Source: an uncultured Acidimicrobiia bacterium (GTDB taxonomy: Bacteria > Actinomycetota > Acidimicrobiia > Spongiisociales > UBA5794). From it: a stretch of DNA of 51,107 nt. The notes under the pieces were generated by a model. That model searched no databases and was not told the DNA's origin. It saw only the letters and a list, made by a program, of their open reading frames with translations. The stretch spans positions 1 to 51,107 of the forward strand of contig CBDUOH010000004.1 in assembly GCA_965368815.1 (NCBI GenBank). Direction: 5' to 3'. The stretch's first letter is position 1. Each line of letters opens with the position of its first letter. The translations under genes were made by a program, and so were the position numbers. Positions 4,593-10,430 of the stretch are shown piece after piece.

Positions 4593-4925
4593 ATGGCTCC
4601 TGCCCGCCCGCTCGCATTGGTGTCCTCGATGATCGGCTTCGGTGGTGTGAGTGCCTATGTGGCCATCATGGCCGGTGAGGGGGACAACAGCCTCCGCATT
4701 GCGGTCCCGATTGCGCTTGGCATGCTTGTCGCAACCGCCTTGGCGCTGGTCGGCACGTTCGCCGCCCAGCCCTCCATCGCTCGGGGCTCGCTGATCGCAG
4801 CGACGATCGTGTTCGGAATCGTGGGGTTCCTCGGGCTCTTCACGATCGGGATCATCTTCGTCATCGCAGCGGCTTTGTCAGGTGCCGCGCTCGGAAGGAT
4901 GCAGGGTCAGCGCTCGGGTCGGTAG
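4593..4925 (+). CDS. Small multi-pass membrane protein
   Basis: About four hydrophobic segments; TATGCT lies 7 nt before ATG 4593. Confidence 0.7.
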   Translation: MAPARPLALVSSMIGFGGVSAYVAIMAGEGDNSLRIAVPIALGMLVATALALVGTFAAQPSIARGSLIAATIVFGIVGFLGLFTIGIIFVIAAALSGAALGRMQGQRSGR

Positions 4926-4962
4926 ACCGCAGAACCGGGCAGGGTCGTCGTTGTCGGGACGC

Positions 4963-5169
4963 TCAATGGTGGTGGTCGTGGCCGTGGGAGCCCGAACCGG
5001 GCTCGTCAGGACCCACTCAACAGCCGGGTTCGCCGTGATTCCCGCAGCACGACGTTCCGTTCTTGATCTTGATCGCGTTGTTCTTGGCCACCAACCGGAG
5101 TTTCTCGAGCAGTGGGAGGTCGCTGTTGGCGAAGTTCCCGAAGTAGTGGCGAGGGTGCGGTCGTGGCAT
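4963..5169 (-). CDS. Cys-rich microprotein; candidate selenoprotein (68 aa with TGA 5017-5019 read as Sec, or 50 aa if that TGA is the stop)
   Basis: TACCGT lies 6 nt before ATG 5169; MPRPHPRHYFGNF...CCGNHGEPGC-TGA, then in frame VGPDEPGSGSHGHDHHH-TGA. The confidence refers to the gene; the Sec reading is less certain. Confidence 0.7.
4984..5016 (-). promoter_or_regulatory. Candidate bacterial SECIS hairpin
   Basis: Immediately 3' of the UGA: GUGG-guccugac-GAGCCC-GGUUC-GGGCUC-CCAC; the G-leading apical loop starts after an 18-nt spacer. Confidence 0.55.
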
Positions 5170-5294
5170 GGGCCCACGGTACACACCCTGGGTGCGGATT
5201 GCGGAGGCTGTCGCGTCGACACCCCGACCGAACTGCTCGTTCAATGTCGGGGTGTCGACGACGTACTCAGGACCTGAGCCGATGGTTGGATGGA

Positions 5295-5714
5295 CTACGC
5301 CTCGAGGGAGTGCTCGTGGTCGTGCTCGTGGGCTTCGTGGTCATGACCGCCGGAAGCCTCCTCGGCTGCGATCTCTTCGCGGATGGCATCCATGTCGAGT
5401 GCCTCGATCTGTGCGATCAGATCCTCAAGGGCATCTTCGGGCAGGGCGCCGGGTTGGGCGAAGATGCCGATCTTGTCGCGGAAGGCGACGAGCGTCGGGA
5501 TCGACTGGATCCCGAAGTTCTGTGCAACCGCCTGCTCGGCCTCGGTGTCGACCTTGGCGAACGTGATGTCGGGATGTGCTTCCGAGACCTTCTCGTAGGT
5601 CGGTGCGAACGAACGGCACGGACCGCACCATTCGGCCCAGAAATCGATCAGGACGATGTCGTTGCCCTCGATCGTCTCGACGAGCGTGTCTGCGGTGATG
5701 TCAATGGTTGCCAC
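5295..5714 (-). CDS. trxA: Thioredoxin with His/Glu-rich C-terminal tail
   Basis: DFWAEWCGPCRSF active site and SIPT cis-Pro motif; AGGAG RBS before GTG. Confidence 0.92.
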   Translation of the reverse strand: MATIDITADTLVETIEGNDIVLIDFWAEWCGPCRSFAPTYEKVSEAHPDITFAKVDTEAEQAVAQNFGIQSIPTLVAFRDKIGIFAQPGALPEDALEDLIAQIEALDMDAIREEIAAEEASGGHDHEAHEHDHEHSLEA

Positions 5715-5806
5715 GATGGCTCCTCTGCAATGGGTTCCAGTCACAGCAACGCGTCGGCGTATCTGTGTATTCCGTTGCAGGGCTTCCTCTCGGTACCCTG
5801 CCTGAT

Positions 5807-6451
5807 GTGTCCGAACCTATCGCGATCGTTACGTTGTCGGGTGTCGCCGTGCGTGCAGGCGCGGTGCCGATCCTGCGCGACATCAACCTGTCAGTCGCCG
5901 CCGGTGAGACCATCGGACTCTTCGGGGCGAACGGTGCTGGGAAGACGACCCTTCTCCGGGTCATGGCGACTTTGAACCGCCCCTCTGCCGGCACCGGGTC
6001 GGTGTTCGGCATCCCGCTCGATCACGACGACCGATTCGATATCCGACATCGCATCGGCTACATCGGGCACACACCGGGGCTCTACCCGGAGCTGACGCTG
6101 GGTGAAAACCTTCGTTTCATTGCCGAGGCCATGGGGATCAGTGCCGAGGAAGCCGATCGGTATCTCGCGGTCGTCGGTCTGTCGGGGGCGATGGACCGTC
6201 GAGCAGATCGATGTAGCCATGGCATGCAGCGGCGAGCCGAGTTCGCCCGGGCTCATATGACCCGTCCCGATCTGCTCCTTCTCGACGAGCCACATTCGGC
6301 CCTCGACGACACCGCAGTCGCCCTCGTCGATGACCTGGTGCGCCGCACCGTGGAATCCGGGGGAGCAGCGGTACTGGTCTCACACGAGCGGGATCGGGTT
6401 GCAGCGTTGTCGACACGGACATTCGAGATCGAAGGTGGCACCCTCCGATGA
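5807..6451 (+). CDS. ccmA: Heme ABC exporter ATP-binding protein CcmA
   Basis: GANGAGKTT Walker A, SHGMQRR signature, LLLLDEP; first gene of the ccm operon; TACCCT 7 nt before GTG. Confidence 0.88.
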   Translation: MSEPIAIVTLSGVAVRAGAVPILRDINLSVAAGETIGLFGANGAGKTTLLRVMATLNRPSAGTGSVFGIPLDHDDRFDIRHRIGYIGHTPGLYPELTLGENLRFIAEAMGISAEEADRYLAVVGLSGAMDRRADRCSHGMQRRAEFARAHMTRPDLLLLDEPHSALDDTAVALVDDLVRRTVESGGAAVLVSHERDRVAALSTRTFEIEGGTLR

Positions 6452-7119
6452 AGGCTTCGTTCTTCGCCCAGACACGTGCCGTCATGAAGCGTGATCTCCT
6501 GCGAGAAAAGCGGTCCGGCGAGGTCCTGTGGATCACCATCCCGTTTGGCGCCGTTGCCCTGCTGTTGATCCCGATCGCGATCGGGATCGACACGCCGACC
6601 CTCCGAGGGGTAGGGATCGGGATGTTCTGGGTGGTGATCATGCTCTTCGGCGTTCTGATCTCCGTTCGGCGATCAACGACAGACTCGATGGCACAGCGCG
6701 ACATGGTGGCACTGACCGGGATGGATCCTGCAGCGGTGTTCGCGGGATCAAGTGCTGCCAACTTCGTGCTGCTCGTGGTGTTCGAGTTGGTACTCGGTGT
6801 GTTGACGATCGTGCTCTACGACATATCGCTGACCGGGTGGGTTTGGATCCCCGCCATCCTGCTCCTTGTCGCTGCTGGGCTCTCGTTCCTCGGTACGCTC
6901 GCCGGAGCCATCGTTGCGACCGGTCAGTCGGCAGGAGCCCTGGTGCCCTTCATCGTTGCCCCGCTGTCGGTGCCGATCCTCATCGCTGCGACCCAGTCGT
7001 TTGAAGGCTTACGGCTCGGTCACAGTATCCTCACATGGGTTCTGATGCTGGTCGTCGTGGCACTTGTCCTGGCGATCGCCGGAGTCCTCGCAGCCCGGCC
7101 CCTCCAGGAGACCTCATGA
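6448..7119 (+). CDS. ccmB: Heme exporter protein CcmB
   Basis: Six-TM-type hydrophobicity; KRDLLREKR and PLSVPILI motifs; lies between ccmA and ccmC. Confidence 0.85.
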   Translation: MKASFFAQTRAVMKRDLLREKRSGEVLWITIPFGAVALLLIPIAIGIDTPTLRGVGIGMFWVVIMLFGVLISVRRSTTDSMAQRDMVALTGMDPAAVFAGSSAANFVLLVVFELVLGVLTIVLYDISLTGWVWIPAILLLVAAGLSFLGTLAGAIVATGQSAGALVPFIVAPLSVPILIAATQSFEGLRLGHSILTWVLMLVVVALVLAIAGVLAARPLQETS

Positions 7120-7868
7120 CCACCGGCGTCGCATCCGACCAGACGCAATCATCTTCAGCCACGTGGCCGTGGTACGCGATGATCGGCGCCGGTGTCGTCA
7201 CGCTCACCGCGTCATTCGTCGTTCCGCCCGATGCCATCCAGGAACAGCTCTCGCGCATCCTCTACGTCCACGTGCCAGCGGCGTGGCTCGCGTATGTGTC
7301 GTTCGGCGTCACGATGCTCGCATCGGCGATCTACCTATGGCGCAAGACCCTCGTGTGGGACCGCATCGCAGCGTCCTCAGCCGAGATTGGCGTCGTGTTC
7401 ACCGGGTTGACGCTCGTGGTCGGCATGATCTGGGGAAAGTCGACATGGGGAGTGTGGTGGACCTGGGATGCGCGTCTGACCCTCACAGCGATCATGTTCT
7501 TCGTGTATCTCGGCTACCTCGCGTTGCGCCGGACCACCGACGATCTCGAGGCGAGGGCCAGGCGTAGCGCCATCCTCGGTCTCATCGCCGTCGTCCAGAT
7601 CCCGCTTGTGCACTTCTCGGTCATTTGGTGGCGTGGTCTGCACCAAACCCCATCGCTCGTCAAGCCGGCCTCGGTGGACATGGATCCCGAAATGGTGGTG
7701 ACGCTGCTCCTTGCGGTCGCGATGTTCTCACTGTTCTACGTCGCCCTGATGTTCAAAAGGGTCGAGCTCGCCAAGCTCGAAGACCGGTTGCTCATCCAGG
7801 ATGTCGCCGACGCAGGTCCGATGGCGGGGGAAGCGGTCACTGCGCCCACGCTCGGAGGTGATGCCTGA
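7116..7868 (+). CDS. ccmC: Heme exporter/chaperone CcmC
   Basis: RILYVHVPAAW; WWD domain WGKSTWGVWWTWDARLT; VHFSVIWWRGLHQ. Confidence 0.95.
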   Translation: MTTGVASDQTQSSSATWPWYAMIGAGVVTLTASFVVPPDAIQEQLSRILYVHVPAAWLAYVSFGVTMLASAIYLWRKTLVWDRIAASSAEIGVVFTGLTLVVGMIWGKSTWGVWWTWDARLTLTAIMFFVYLGYLALRRTTDDLEARARRSAILGLIAVVQIPLVHFSVIWWRGLHQTPSLVKPASVDMDPEMVVTLLLAVAMFSLFYVALMFKRVELAKLEDRLLIQDVADAGPMAGEAVTAPTLGGDA

Positions 7869-7999
7869 TGGATGTCGCTGAGCAGTGGAACTGGGTCGGG
7901 CTCGCGTACGGGGCGACGTATATCAGTCTCGTCGTCTACGCCGCGGCCGTGGCCAACAAGATCTCCAAGGCCCGGCAACGCCTCGACGGAGGATCATGA
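7868..7999 (+). CDS. ccmD: CcmD-like small membrane protein (43 aa, not in ORF track)
   Basis: MDVAEQWNWVGLAYGATYISLVVYAAAVANKISKARQRLDGGS; TGATG overlap with ccmC and ATGA overlap with ccmE; AYG motif, TM segment and basic tail. Confidence 0.75.
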   Translation: MDVAEQWNWVGLAYGATYISLVVYAAAVANKISKARQRLDGGS

Positions 8000-8406
8000 A
8001 CCGCTACCTCCGGTTTGTCATCCCTGGGATCGTGCTGGTGGCCATTCTCGCTTTCCTGCTCGTCAACCTCAGCGCATCGCTGGTGTACTACAACACACCT
8101 GCAGAGGTCCAGACCCGCGAGGCGAGCACCGAACGGCTCCGGCTCGGTGGGCGGGTCGAACCAGGCTCGGTCTCCCAGGCCGACGAGACCGTGATGTTCA
8201 ATGTCCAGGACTGTGACACGTTCGTCGCGGTGGTGCACCAAGGTGCTCCGCCCCAATTGTTCCAGGAGGGGATTGGTGTGGTGCTCGAGGGAACCTGGGA
8301 CGGTGCGGTGTTCGAGTCCGACACGATGCTCGTCAAGCACGACGAGCAATACCGTTCGGACGACACCGAGTACGACACGGAACGCCACTCCTGTAGCGAG
8401 TCATGA
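7996..8406 (+). CDS. ccmE: Heme chaperone CcmE
   Basis: LVYYNTP, RLGGRV, PQLFQEG and heme-binding KHDEQY (HxxxY). Confidence 0.93.
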   Translation: MNRYLRFVIPGIVLVAILAFLLVNLSASLVYYNTPAEVQTREASTERLRLGGRVEPGSVSQADETVMFNVQDCDTFVAVVHQGAPPQLFQEGIGVVLEGTWDGAVFESDTMLVKHDEQYRSDDTEYDTERHSCSES

Positions 8407-10430
8407 TCGCCGTCGCGGGCTATCTCGCCGTTGTCACCGCCGTGGTCGCAGCCGTGGGCCTTGTCATCCAGGGGGCCCGCGCGTCACGCACAGGTGACCG
8501 ATCCCTCGTCAGTCTGCCGATCCGGGTCCTGGTCGGCTCGGCTGCGGCTTCGTTCATCCTGCTTGAAGCCGGCATTCTGACGCACGATTTCTCGATTGCG
8601 TACATAGCCAACAACACCGCAACGAGCACGCCGTCGGTCTTCCTGTTCGCCGCGGGGTGGGCAGCCCTCGAAGGCTCGATTGTTCTGTGGGGGCTGCTGC
8701 TCGCCGCCTTCATCGGGATCGTGTATCGCTCGAAGGCCTCCAGCGACCCACTCGGCCTTCTCGCGCTTTCGATCATGGGCGCCGTCGCCGTGTTCTGGTT
8801 CGGGCTCATGGCCACCGTCGCGAATCCTTTCGCCGTGTGCACTGCGGTGGCAGGCGGTGTTTGCTCGGACACGGCCTGGTGGCCCCTTGCGCAGTCCTTG
8901 GCACCACTCGAGGGACGTGGGCCGAATCCCCTTCTCCAGAACCACATCCTCATGGCGATCCATCCGCCGATGCTCTACGTCGGGTACGTCGGGATGACGG
9001 TCCCATTCGGGTTCGCAATAGCCGCCCTCATCCGAAGAGAAGGAGGCAAGCGCTGGCTCGACAGGACGCACCGATGGACGCTCGTGTCGTGGGGATTCCT
9101 CACGGCAGGCATCATGCTCGGCGGGTGGTGGTCCTATGAGGTGCTTGGCTGGGGAGGCTATTGGGCGTGGGATCCGGTGGAGAACGCTGCCCTCCTGCCG
9201 TGGCTCGCTGCAACCGCTTTCCTTCACTCAGCGCTCGTTCAACGAAGGCGCGGCATGCTCCAGGCGTGGAACTTCATGCTGGTGATTGCCACATTCTCGC
9301 TCACAATTCTCGGCACCTTCCTCACGCGGTCGGGTGTGATCGCTTCAGTCCACTCGTTCACGCAATCTGCCGTCGGGCCGGCAATCCTGTCGTTCCTCCT
9401 GATCGTCGTCGTGGCGTCGCTCGCACTGTTCGTGGTCCGGGCTCGCGACATCTCCCAGTCGCCACGGCTGGACTCGCTCGTCTCGAGGGAGGGCTTCATC
9501 CTCGCCAACAACCTGTTGCTCACCGTGTTCACGTTCAGCGTGTTGTTCGGCACGATGTATCCGCTGATCGTGGAAGCAATATCGGGTGACGAAGTGGCTG
9601 TCGGTCGACCGTTCTACGACAAGGCAGCCGTCCCCCTTGCGCTTCTGCTGCTGCTCATGATCGGCCTCGGGTCGGTCGCGCCCTGGCGGGTGGCGACGCC
9701 ACACGTGCTCTGGATTCGTCTGCGTTGGCCGATTGCCGGCGCTCTGGTCGCCGGTGCCGTCGCCGTCGTCGCTGGACTCGCATCGGTTGGTGTCCTGATC
9801 ACGCTGGTACTGGCGGTTTTCGTGATCGGCGCACTTGCTCTCCGGTTCGCCGAGGTCGTCAGCGCCAGGCCCGAAGGGCTCCCTGCGGCGGCGCGCAAGG
9901 TTGTCGCCAATGACCCGGGGTACTGGGGCGGGCAGATCGCCCATGTTGGTGTAGCGCTGGTGGCAATCGCGCTGGCGACCACGAGCGGGCTCGCCGTTCG
10001 CGACACGATCTCGATCGGTATCGACGAAAGCGTCGCCAGCGTCGGGTACTGCTTCGAACATCGGGGTCCGTTCGAGACACAACAGGCGCACCGGACGGTG
10101 TCGGGTGTGTCCATCGCAGTACTCGACGAAGCATGCAGCACAGAGATGCGGGTCATGACCCCGAGCGTCAACGAGTACCCGGGTTTCGGTCAGCCGATCG
10201 GGACGCCTGACGTATGGACGCGTTTCACCGAGGACGTGTACCTGCGGATATCGGGCGGAACCTCAGAGACGATCACGCTCGATGTCTTCGTGTTCCCGTT
10301 CCAATGGCTGTTGTGGTTCGGGGGTCTGGTGATCGTGAGCGGTGGAGCCGTGGCGTTCAGGCGGAAACCGGATCGACGCCCGGAACCGTCAGACCGAGTG
10401 ACGCACTCCGAAGGGCTCCTCGATGCGTGA
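8403..10430 (+). CDS. ccmF: Cytochrome c heme lyase CcmF
   Basis: NPLLQN, HPPMLYVGY, WSYEVLGWGGYWAWDPVENA, GTFLTRSG, SVHSF. Confidence 0.96.
   Translation: MIAVAGYLAVVTAVVAAVGLVIQGARASRTGDRSLVSLPIRVLVGSAAASFILLEAGILTHDFSIAYIANNTATSTPSVFLFAAGWAALEGSIVLWGLLLAAFIGIVYRSKASSDPLGLLALSIMGAVAVFWFGLMATVANPFAVCTAVAGGVCSDTAWWPLAQSLAPLEGRGPNPLLQNHILMAIHPPMLYVGYVGMTVPFGFAIAALIRREGGKRWLDRTHRWTLVSWGFLTAGIMLGGWWSYEVLGWGGYWAWDPVENAALLPWLAATAFLHSALVQRRRGMLQAWNFMLVIATFSLTILGTFLTRSGVIASVHSFTQSAVGPAILSFLLIVVVASLALFVVRARDISQSPRLDSLVSREGFILANNLLLTVFTFSVLFGTMYPLIVEAISGDEVAVGRPFYDKAAVPLALLLLLMIGLGSVAPWRVATPHVLWIRLRWPIAGALVAGAVAVVAGLASVGVLITLVLAVFVIGALALRFAEVVSARPEGLPAAARKVVANDPGYWGGQIAHVGVALVAIALATTSGLAVRDTISIGIDESVASVGYCFEHRGPFETQQAHRTVSGVSIAVLDEACSTEMRVMTPSVNEYPGFGQPIGTPDVWTRFTEDVYLRISGGTSETITLDVFVFPFQWLLWFGGLVIVSGGAVAFRRKPDRRPEPSDRVTHSEGLLDA

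Follow-up and report, generated by a model that had tools for sequence, protein, structure and literature searches.

The window analysed here is a 51,107-nt stretch of DNA from an uncultured Acidimicrobiia bacterium (assembly GCA_965368815.1, contig CBDUOH010000004.1), and its minus strand carries a small gene that is interrupted by an in-frame UGA codon. The gene starts with an ATG at position 5169 and runs for 50 codons (MPRPHPRHYFGNFANSDLPLLEKLRLVAKNNAIKIKNGTSCCGNHGEPGC), which start with MPRPH and end with CCGNHGEPGC, up to a TGA at 5019-5017. Beyond this first TGA the frame stays open for 17 further codons (VGPDEPGSGSHGHDHHH) and is closed by a second TGA at 4965-4963. A hairpin with arms at 5004-4998 and 4994-4988, flanked by GUGG...CCAC, places its stem 13-29 nt downstream of the first UGA. 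A sequence-only reading of the window had singled out these elements and proposed a 68-aa selenoprotein with a CC-x7-CU motif, a selenocysteine insertion sequence (SECIS) inside the coding region and a His tail. The gene, its first TGA, the 17-codon continuation and the second TGA are all present in the sequence and its translation, and the hairpin (GUGG...GAGCCC-GGUUC-GGGCUC-CCAC, with 18 nt from UGA to loop) folds as described. The proposal itself is now supported by the conservation of the TGA, by forms of the protein with Cys in its place, by covariation in the stem and by His codons that are locked to the frame. The full coding sequence (CDS) at 5169..4966 on the minus strand is thus very probably a real selenoprotein gene, in which the UGA is decoded as selenocysteine (Sec). 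The features of the single sequence do not exceed chance; the signal comes from the four comparisons with relatives named above. The features of the gene are as follows.

4966..5169, minus strand: predicted full CDS of the small selenoprotein, 68 codons, with Sec as codon 51 (orthologues aligned over the full length)
5020..5169, minus strand: conserved N-terminal domain of 50 aa, a basic two-helix region followed by the CCGNHGEPGC loop
5017..5019, minus strand: UGA predicted to be read as Sec, residue 51, in Gly-Cys-Sec (TGA kept across loci, Cys forms)
4988..5004, minus strand: putative SECIS hairpin GAGCCCG / GUU / CGGGCUC (position, covariation)
4966..4986, minus strand: His/Asp-rich C-terminal tail HGHDHHH (composition, frame, Cys-form homologues)
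4963..4965, minus strand: predicted true stop, TGA (behaves as an ordinary stop in relatives, unlike the first UGA)

Conservation of the in-frame UGA and of the protein

A word-indexed search returned 73 relatives, which the named sources call 'hypothetical protein' and which derive from Acidimicrobiia or Actinomycetota metagenome-assembled genomes (MAGs); 72 of them end exactly at ...GC. A profile search of 1.84 billion cluster representatives gave 442 clusters (clustered at 50% identity) at E<=1e-3, 113 of which reach E<=1e-10. When stops were read through in a 401-genome sample of the class, 27 carriers in 21 genera were found, each with one TGA inside the match, and a 401-genome sample of the phylum held 73 carriers in 57 of its 249 genera. 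A single peptide pattern located relatives in 471 species-representative genomes, from which the best 80 pattern-matching genomes were taken, and 35 loci were fetched from metagenomes, 34 with the motif and one without. These genome and locus sets overlap and their sequences are related, so that the counts are not independent. The phylum tally (73/401) includes the unpublished genomes G477, G483, G538, G610 and G649. The unpublished loci L084 (G477), L086 (G649) and L093 (G610) are within the locus counts, and L084 and L093 are also in the alignment A3 used below; the selA tally of the class sample includes the unpublished genomes G212, G250, G275 and G389. None of the conclusions depends on any of these unpublished sequences.

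The codon that follows ...GC is TGA in all inspected loci of the class genomes (27/27), in all metagenome loci with the motif (34/34) and in all inspected loci of the phylum sample (28/28), and each of the 73 matching genomes of the phylum sample has at least one TGA inside the match. In the 80 species genomes it is TGA 79 times and TGC once (locus L181, which also carries the tail). The sequence-only reading had named homologues that end at PGC with TAA or TAG as the pattern that would speak for simple termination; no inspected locus has either triplet at this position, which is occupied by TGA and once by TGC. The second stop behaves differently: it is TGA in 67, TAG in 19 and TAA in three of the 89 loci of the first three sets (21 TGA and six TAG in the class set), and TGA in 57, TAG in 19 and TAA in four of the 80 species genomes. 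The second stop drifts like an ordinary stop and the first never does, which provides an internal control.

Protein records tell the same position from the other side. Of the 150 best cluster representatives, 134 stop after ...GC, and seven have Cys next and run on into a tail, in most cases with His; W takes this place in four, one of R, G, Q or D in another four, and one record is cut. TGA and the same tail are found in the nearest relatives of the Cys form P0002 (96% identity), and the Cys codon of L181 was confirmed at the DNA level. The suggestion that gene callers truncate this protein is borne out by the database relatives, which end at ...GC in 72/73 and 134/150 cases.

Trp at the Sec position occurs in the public gene calls P0085, P0086, P0178 and P0189, two of which have a further Trp beyond the normal end. 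These W forms are probably gene calls made under a table in which TGA means Trp, because two of them also carry W where their relatives stop. Calls under codes 4 or 25 on such contigs may hide selenoprotein genes.

The conserved part of the protein lies mostly before the UGA. In aligned orthologues the residues N12, N30, K34, C41, C42, G43, G46, G49 and C50 are invariant, as is the position of the UGA. Nearest-neighbour pairs differ over the 40 codons before the UGA at codon positions 1, 2 and 3 in 35, 19 and 119 cases, and this dominance of the third position indicates that the core is under purifying selection at the protein level. AlphaFold2, run with 26 sequences, predicts helices at residues 7-15 and 20-37, an unstructured CC-G-N-H-G-E-P-G-C-U loop and a disordered tail, with a mean pLDDT of 60.8. 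A look-up in the ESM Atlas with the natural Cys form P0002 gave unnamed small proteins only, with scores of 0.79-0.82.

As judged from these sequences, the family is spread across the Actinomycetota, with a few records labelled Dehalococcoidia, of which L162 and L191 may be genuine members outside the phylum. Close relatives also occur in MAGs labelled Armatimonadetes, Flavobacteriaceae, Eubacteriales and Saprospiraceae (L119, L120, L163 and L181), labels that more probably reflect mis-binning than gene transfer. The ESM Atlas matches are a lead, and no more, to possible relatives in Chloroflexota and Nitrospirota. A divergent branch combines the conserved domain with GC-TGA (L044, on G359:C185) or with GC-Gln (database protein P0210); in L044 and P0210 a long coiled-coil/SAP-like tail without His replaces the short His-rich arm.

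The hairpin, the tail and the selenocysteine machinery

In the window the apical G and U of the hairpin stand at +23/+24 from the U of the UGA, and if the stem is drawn with 6 bp the loop reads GGUUC. An uninterrupted stem of at least 6 bp is found in 66 of 74 unique downstream sequences compared to 408 of 1480 dinucleotide shuffles, and several of the remaining eight sequences have bulged stems. The 74 sequences hold 50 distinct stems. In 54 of them the apical loop G stands at +23 and in another 12 at +26, never at +24 or +25, so the hairpin shifts in whole codons. Some members have the loop CGUGA or GGUCG, or the one-codon shift.

The sequence-only reading had suggested looking for hairpin covariation and for a conserved downstream frame, and both were found. 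For the 7-bp helix, the class alignment A1 contains 29 double-change cells where shuffles give 10.3; 0/500 shuffles are as high, and the helix beats all slid registers. On alignment A3, which consists of 77 of 120 unique sequences hand-picked for their fit to the +23 register, there are 95 double-change cells against 27.9 in shuffles, again with 0/500 as high; its pair 20-34, for example, is AU in 30, CG in 26, GC in 14 and GU in six sequences. The peptide encoded by the hairpin varies (EPGSGS, ESGPDS, ASGSDG, GSGSGP) while the base pairs stay. Differences in the hairpin zone fall on the three codon positions as 14/20/9, without third-position bias, and together with the retained pairing this points to selection on the RNA rather than on the peptide.

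Bacterial SECIS elements offer a direct comparison. G23 and U24 contact SelB, and these two bases and a bulged U matter for SelB binding. According to its record, E. coli K-12 fdhF has the loop GGTC at +22..+25 from the T of its TGA; the bases at this distance are GGTT in the window, and GGTC recurs in many relatives. Both elements are thus coding-region hairpins directly 3' of the UGA, with an upper stem of 6-8 bp and an apical loop G-G-U-C/U at the identical position, +22..+25. In contrast to fdhF, the window element has no bulged U in its upper stem, and a few relatives do have a bulge. A T-run after the hairpin was not found, and an Rfam search of 4900-5100 at a permissive threshold gave no family, with only a chance aspS match at E 6.3.

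An alternative pairing of 11 nt joins 4993-5003 with 5022-5032 on the minus strand (repeat I2, 91% complementary), that is, the Glu-Pro-Gly codons before the UGA with the 5' half and loop of the SECIS. This pairing would enclose the UGA and may compete with the SECIS fold; it may equally be a chance product, since both parts hold CCCGG-type palindromes.

Downstream of the hairpin, the frame of the UGA encodes a tail of 10-36 residues, or of 83 in L044. Pooled post-hairpin tails contain 38% His and 20% Asp in this frame, and the other two frames would encode Thr/Ile or Arg/Pro. Over a fixed interval, +37..+90, the UGA frame is the richest of the three in CAY codons for 69 of 77 unique sequences; seven are ties, and in one another frame leads. 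At least two His are present in 70 of the 77 tails, and the Cys-form homologues carry the tail as well. The tail is conserved in composition and frame, not in sequence, as is often the case in disordered His-rich arms. Purifying selection at the codon level is absent from it.

The genome that holds the window (2.30 Mb, 163 contigs, 96.5% complete) encodes the full set of proteins and RNA for Sec insertion. The nine sequencing runs listed are DNA metagenomes, with no RNA run among them. Searches of the genome found selA (397 bits) and selB (361 bits) side by side on contig C66, selD (400 bits) with a single in-frame TGA, which falls on the active-site position (...GAGU-ACK), and tRNA-Sec (71 bits), whose anticodon ARAGORN gives as TCA. 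These four genes were the check that the sequence-only reading had proposed, and its statement that no sel genes lie in the window is consistent with their location on other contigs. The same genome has an AhpD-like peroxidase-related gene (TIGR01926, 145 bits) with an in-frame TGA in ...CHYU..., and a gene of the UGSC family (NF041046, 156 bits), also with an in-frame TGA. In the class sample selA is present in 27 of the 27 carriers, against a background over the cut-off of 273/401. The three Sec-containing genes lie at the following positions.

C9:25537-26463, minus strand: selD
C108:487-1233 (L112): AhpD-like gene
C38:14935-15525 (L113): UGSC gene

Each of the three has a hairpin with a GU loop downstream of its in-frame TGA: the loop is GGUC at +22..+25 in the AhpD-like gene, and the GU lies at +23/+24 in UGSC and at +37/+38 in selD. 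A further SECIS-like candidate on contig C33 matched no family and was dropped.

Gene neighbourhood and catalogued families

A thioredoxin (Trx) gene lies 125 nt upstream of the small gene on the same strand (open reading frame 5744..5295; PF00085, 84.9 bits). As had been pointed out, it ends in a His-rich tail, here a His/Asp/Glu-rich C-terminal extension (GGHDHEAHEHDHEHSLEA). The Trx gene, at 5295-5744 on the minus strand, is divergent from a System I cytochrome c maturation cluster at 5708-10430 on the plus strand, with ccmA (ABC_tran), ccmB, ccmC, ccmE and ccmF. The Trx may serve the reduction of haem or apocytochrome thiols rather than the small selenoprotein. Two further elements lie between the two genes.

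5214..5260, strand not assigned: 15-bp perfect inverted repeat I1, arms 5214-5228 / 5246-5260, with a 17-nt loop
5176..5181, minus strand: TACCGT, a TAnnnT-type, -10-like hexamer at -12..-7 from the ATG

The inverted repeat probably separates the transcripts of the Trx and the small gene; no T-run follows it, and it may act as a terminator that lacks a U-tail. A scan for E. coli-type promoters gave no match. Across 73 unique upstream regions there is a T at -12 in 40, an A at -11 in 51 and a T at -7 in 44. The TAnnnT hexamer is present in most Acidimicrobiia members, often after TGn, and GGAGG-like sites are found in the other classes, a distribution which suggests leaderless mRNA in the Acidimicrobiia members and leadered mRNA in the others. 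The neighbours of the family loci are otherwise lineage-specific housekeeping genes.

The family was compared with catalogued ones. Table 1 of a recent survey lists 119 prokaryotic selenoprotein families (PMC13188914, 2026); the small protein is not among these 119, and GOS_A in that table has no model. A literature search that included the available parts of PMC13326102, PMC12013277, PMC2398784 and PMC5029168 yielded no description of it there. The family thus appears to be new to the catalogues examined; the supplementary lists (BSepDB, deep-Sep Table S2, GOS Dataset S2 and the Actinomarina tables) could hold it. Searches of the 75-aa truncated form and five read-through members against Pfam and NCBIfam identified no true family, and weak coiled-coil/SAP-like matches were confined to the long tail of L044. 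An uncharacterised 78-aa family of Actinomarina, as described in the available part of bioRxiv 10.64898/2026.04.03.716425, was considered as a counterpart and rejected: protein and profile queries found the small gene in 0/65 genomes of the ~1-Mb family f12, the equation of which with the Actinomarina group is a guess.

The two other selenoproteins named above share the genome, the Sec machinery and the hairpin type (7-8 bp, GU at +23/+24) with the small gene. However, the AhpD-like and UGSC proteins are catalogued and unrelated, with CxxU and UGSC motifs, whereas the small gene has CU and no family model. Mammalian thioredoxin reductase has a C-terminal redox centre Gly-Cys-Sec-Gly. Gly-Cys-Sec is common to this enzyme and the small protein, and a selenenylsulfide is possible in principle in both. 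Unlike the reductase, in which Gly-COOH follows, the small protein continues after Sec with V/M/R/K/Q and 10-36 residues (83 in one case). It also differs in being a stand-alone protein of 68 aa without a flavoprotein domain and in having a vicinal CC pair eight residues upstream.

Selenoproteins with a CU motif include SaoC, SaoB, SaoL, HgcA, MbdU, KCU-star/DUF466 and the Csac_0668 type (PMC13188914 and bioRxiv 10.1101/2022.07.06.499078, available parts), and in the part of the latter source available to us CC and CU motifs of other selenoproteins are argued to contact heavy-metal atoms. These proteins and the small-gene family have the Cys-Sec dipeptide and database truncation at a C-terminal Cys in common, and some of them are small as well. 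The small-gene family differs from them in being actinobacterial, in occurring mostly in genomes that are not of the anaerobe type, in its His/Asp tail and in having no conserved transporter or operon neighbour. Membership in KCU-star/DUF466 (NF033934) finds no model match, and the Sec is not C-terminal. NCBIfam gave no match at E<=10 to SaoC (NF040734), SaoB (NF040727), SaoL (NF040728), HgcA (NF040863) or MbdU (NF045648), nor to the hypothetical families GOS_B/C and DG/DW/DF, and Pfam gave none at E<=10 to the HdrB-type CCG cysteine-rich domain, which we take to be PF02754. UreE, HypB and SlyD are metallochaperones with His-rich tails, and the small protein resembles them in its flexible C-terminal arm, rich in His/Asp, beside a metal site with Cys that here is only predicted. 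The likeness is one of composition only, as the small protein has no homology to the three and no nickel- or other metal-enzyme neighbourhood.

Alternative readings, predicted function and significance

Several observations weigh against decoding of the UGA as Sec or against the function proposed for the product. The window hairpin taken alone has a folding z of -1.02, and 26/200 shuffles fold as well. A loose pattern of TGA followed by a hairpin of at least 7 bp with a GU loop at +20..+40, which is not specific by itself, occurs at 196 of the 67,410 TGA triplets in this GC-rich genome. The 95.7% of paired positions in A3 is inflated by the register-based selection of its sequences, which affects the double-change counts less. 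Post-hairpin tails differ at the three codon positions as 28/27/34, with 48 non-synonymous and nine synonymous codon changes and hence no purifying selection at the codon level; His is absent from five of the 77 tails, L044 has an unrelated tail of 83 aa, and the tail could partly be a by-product of translating through the SECIS. Few Cys forms exist (7/150 and 1/80), and the one Cys-form genome that was checked for loss of the Sec machinery (that of L181) retains selA. Four diverse read-through members have no match in Pfam-A and NCBIfam 20.0 (June 2026) even at E<=10, a profile search of the PDB gave no relative and one chance match at E 3, and the structure model is of low confidence (pLDDT 60.8). 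As to function, there is no conserved operon; the most frequent neighbour is a convergent gene for undecaprenyl-diphosphate synthase (UppS), present at 14 of 77 loci.

The plainest alternative is that the UGA is an ordinary stop, with a 50-aa product ending in ...PGC, a hairpin that acts as a terminator or other 3' element, and a His frame that arose by chance in GC-rich DNA. Public gene calls do stop there (72/73 and 134/150), open frames and hairpins arise readily in GC-rich DNA, and the insignificance of the window hairpin alone and a tail evolving without codon-level constraint would both fit. We nevertheless regard this reading as very unlikely. TAA and TAG never occupy the position in inspected loci while the next stop varies freely, and the sense variants seen there are Cys, with the tail. 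The hairpin keeps a fixed distance that changes in whole-codon steps, and its GU loop is like those of the SECIS elements of the same genome and of fdhF; no T-run follows it, and it accompanies the small gene from locus to locus while the gene downstream changes. Chance does not readily account for His codons that are locked to the UGA frame in 69/77. Two products could also be made, a 50-aa Cys-ended form by termination and the 68-aa form by Sec insertion, at a ratio set by selenium, so that the gene would be a selenium-dependent switch. Release factor 2 competes with SelB at the UGA in bacterial Sec insertion, the conserved domain is complete before the UGA, and pairing of 5022-5032 with 4993-5003 could sequester half of the SECIS stem. 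However, the invariance of TGA and SECIS amounts to selection for read-through rather than termination, and the Cys forms make the long product only, which leaves the switch unlikely.

Reading of the UGA as tryptophan or another standard residue under a reassigned code is extremely improbable. It could draw on the W at this position in four database relatives and on the UGA-to-Trp reassignment in some Actinomycetota (Eggerthellaceae; available part of PMC13462651). Against it, most family members also terminate at TGA, and the genome combines a complete Sec machinery with three known selenoprotein genes that have TGA at Cys/Sec sites. Sense variants confirmed by DNA or by ordinary gene calls have Cys and never Trp; of the four W forms, two have an extra W past the normal end, which would itself point to a TGA=Trp table. 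A different alternative accepts the selenoprotein and makes it a redox module coupled to the adjacent thioredoxin. Such a module would fit a same-strand Trx that lies 125 nt upstream and itself has a His-rich tail, and a Gly-Cys-Sec that recalls the redox centre of thioredoxin reductase. Nevertheless, a tblastn search with the window Trx found a Trx within ~1.5 kb in one of 89 loci only, the window's own, and the link that the sequence-only reading had drawn between the two genes is therefore not conserved. The 15-bp perfect inverted repeat and the -10-like hexamer lie between the genes, the position of the Trx divergent from ccmABCEF would tie it more naturally to cytochrome c maturation, and the Sec is not penultimate and no flavoprotein domain is present. 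A Trx-coupled module is accordingly quite unlikely.

Under the favoured interpretation, a selenoprotein gene with a coding-region SECIS, SelB would dock on the hairpin 13-29 nt downstream of the UGA and deliver Sec-tRNA(Sec), and the UGA at codon 51 would be decoded as selenocysteine. Translation would then continue through the linker encoded by the hairpin into the His/Asp-rich tail and stop at the second TGA. The predicted 68-aa product would begin with a basic two-helix domain, followed by the invariant CC-G-(N/H)-x-G-x-P-G-C-U loop and then by a His/Asp arm that is disordered. This recoding mechanism is canonical; what appears to be new is the family.

What the product does can be proposed with less confidence. 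There is about an even chance that C41, C42, H45, C50 and U51 form a site for the binding or hand-over of a soft or transition metal, with the His/Asp arm capturing the metal; this reading is favoured because of the two vicinal chalcogen pairs, the usually present His and the His/Asp arm, and it agrees with the heavy-metal contacts argued for CC and CU motifs elsewhere (bioRxiv 10.1101/2022.07.06.499078). C50-U51 may possibly cycle as a selenenylsulfide redox centre similar to that of thioredoxin reductase, which is a more tentative proposal. The two are compatible and do not exclude each other, with the metal site favoured.

The existence of the family has consequences for annotation. Hundreds of 50-aa 'hypothetical protein' entries are cut at the Sec codon, and a family model would correct them all. 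Searches for selenoproteins that depend on Cys homologues miss short families that nearly always have Sec, and this family shows why. Sec is present in almost every member, which is unusual since Cys forms dominate most selenoprotein families. With two vicinal pairs, CC and CU, and a His/Asp arm in 68 aa, the protein is a compact model for selenolate-metal or selenenylsulfide chemistry.

For the Actinomycetota the family adds a widespread target of the Sec machinery. We tentatively suggest that it is a near-obligately Sec-dependent small metallochaperone or metal buffer of aerobic members of the phylum, in which a soft-metal Cys-Cys/His/Cys-Sec site would be fed by the arm. The gene may also yield a short Cys-ended form under selenium scarcity, since its conserved domain is complete before the UGA, and metal handling would then be coupled to the selenium supply. 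If this is true, the protein would help to explain the retention of the Sec machinery in many streamlined marine and sediment actinobacteria.

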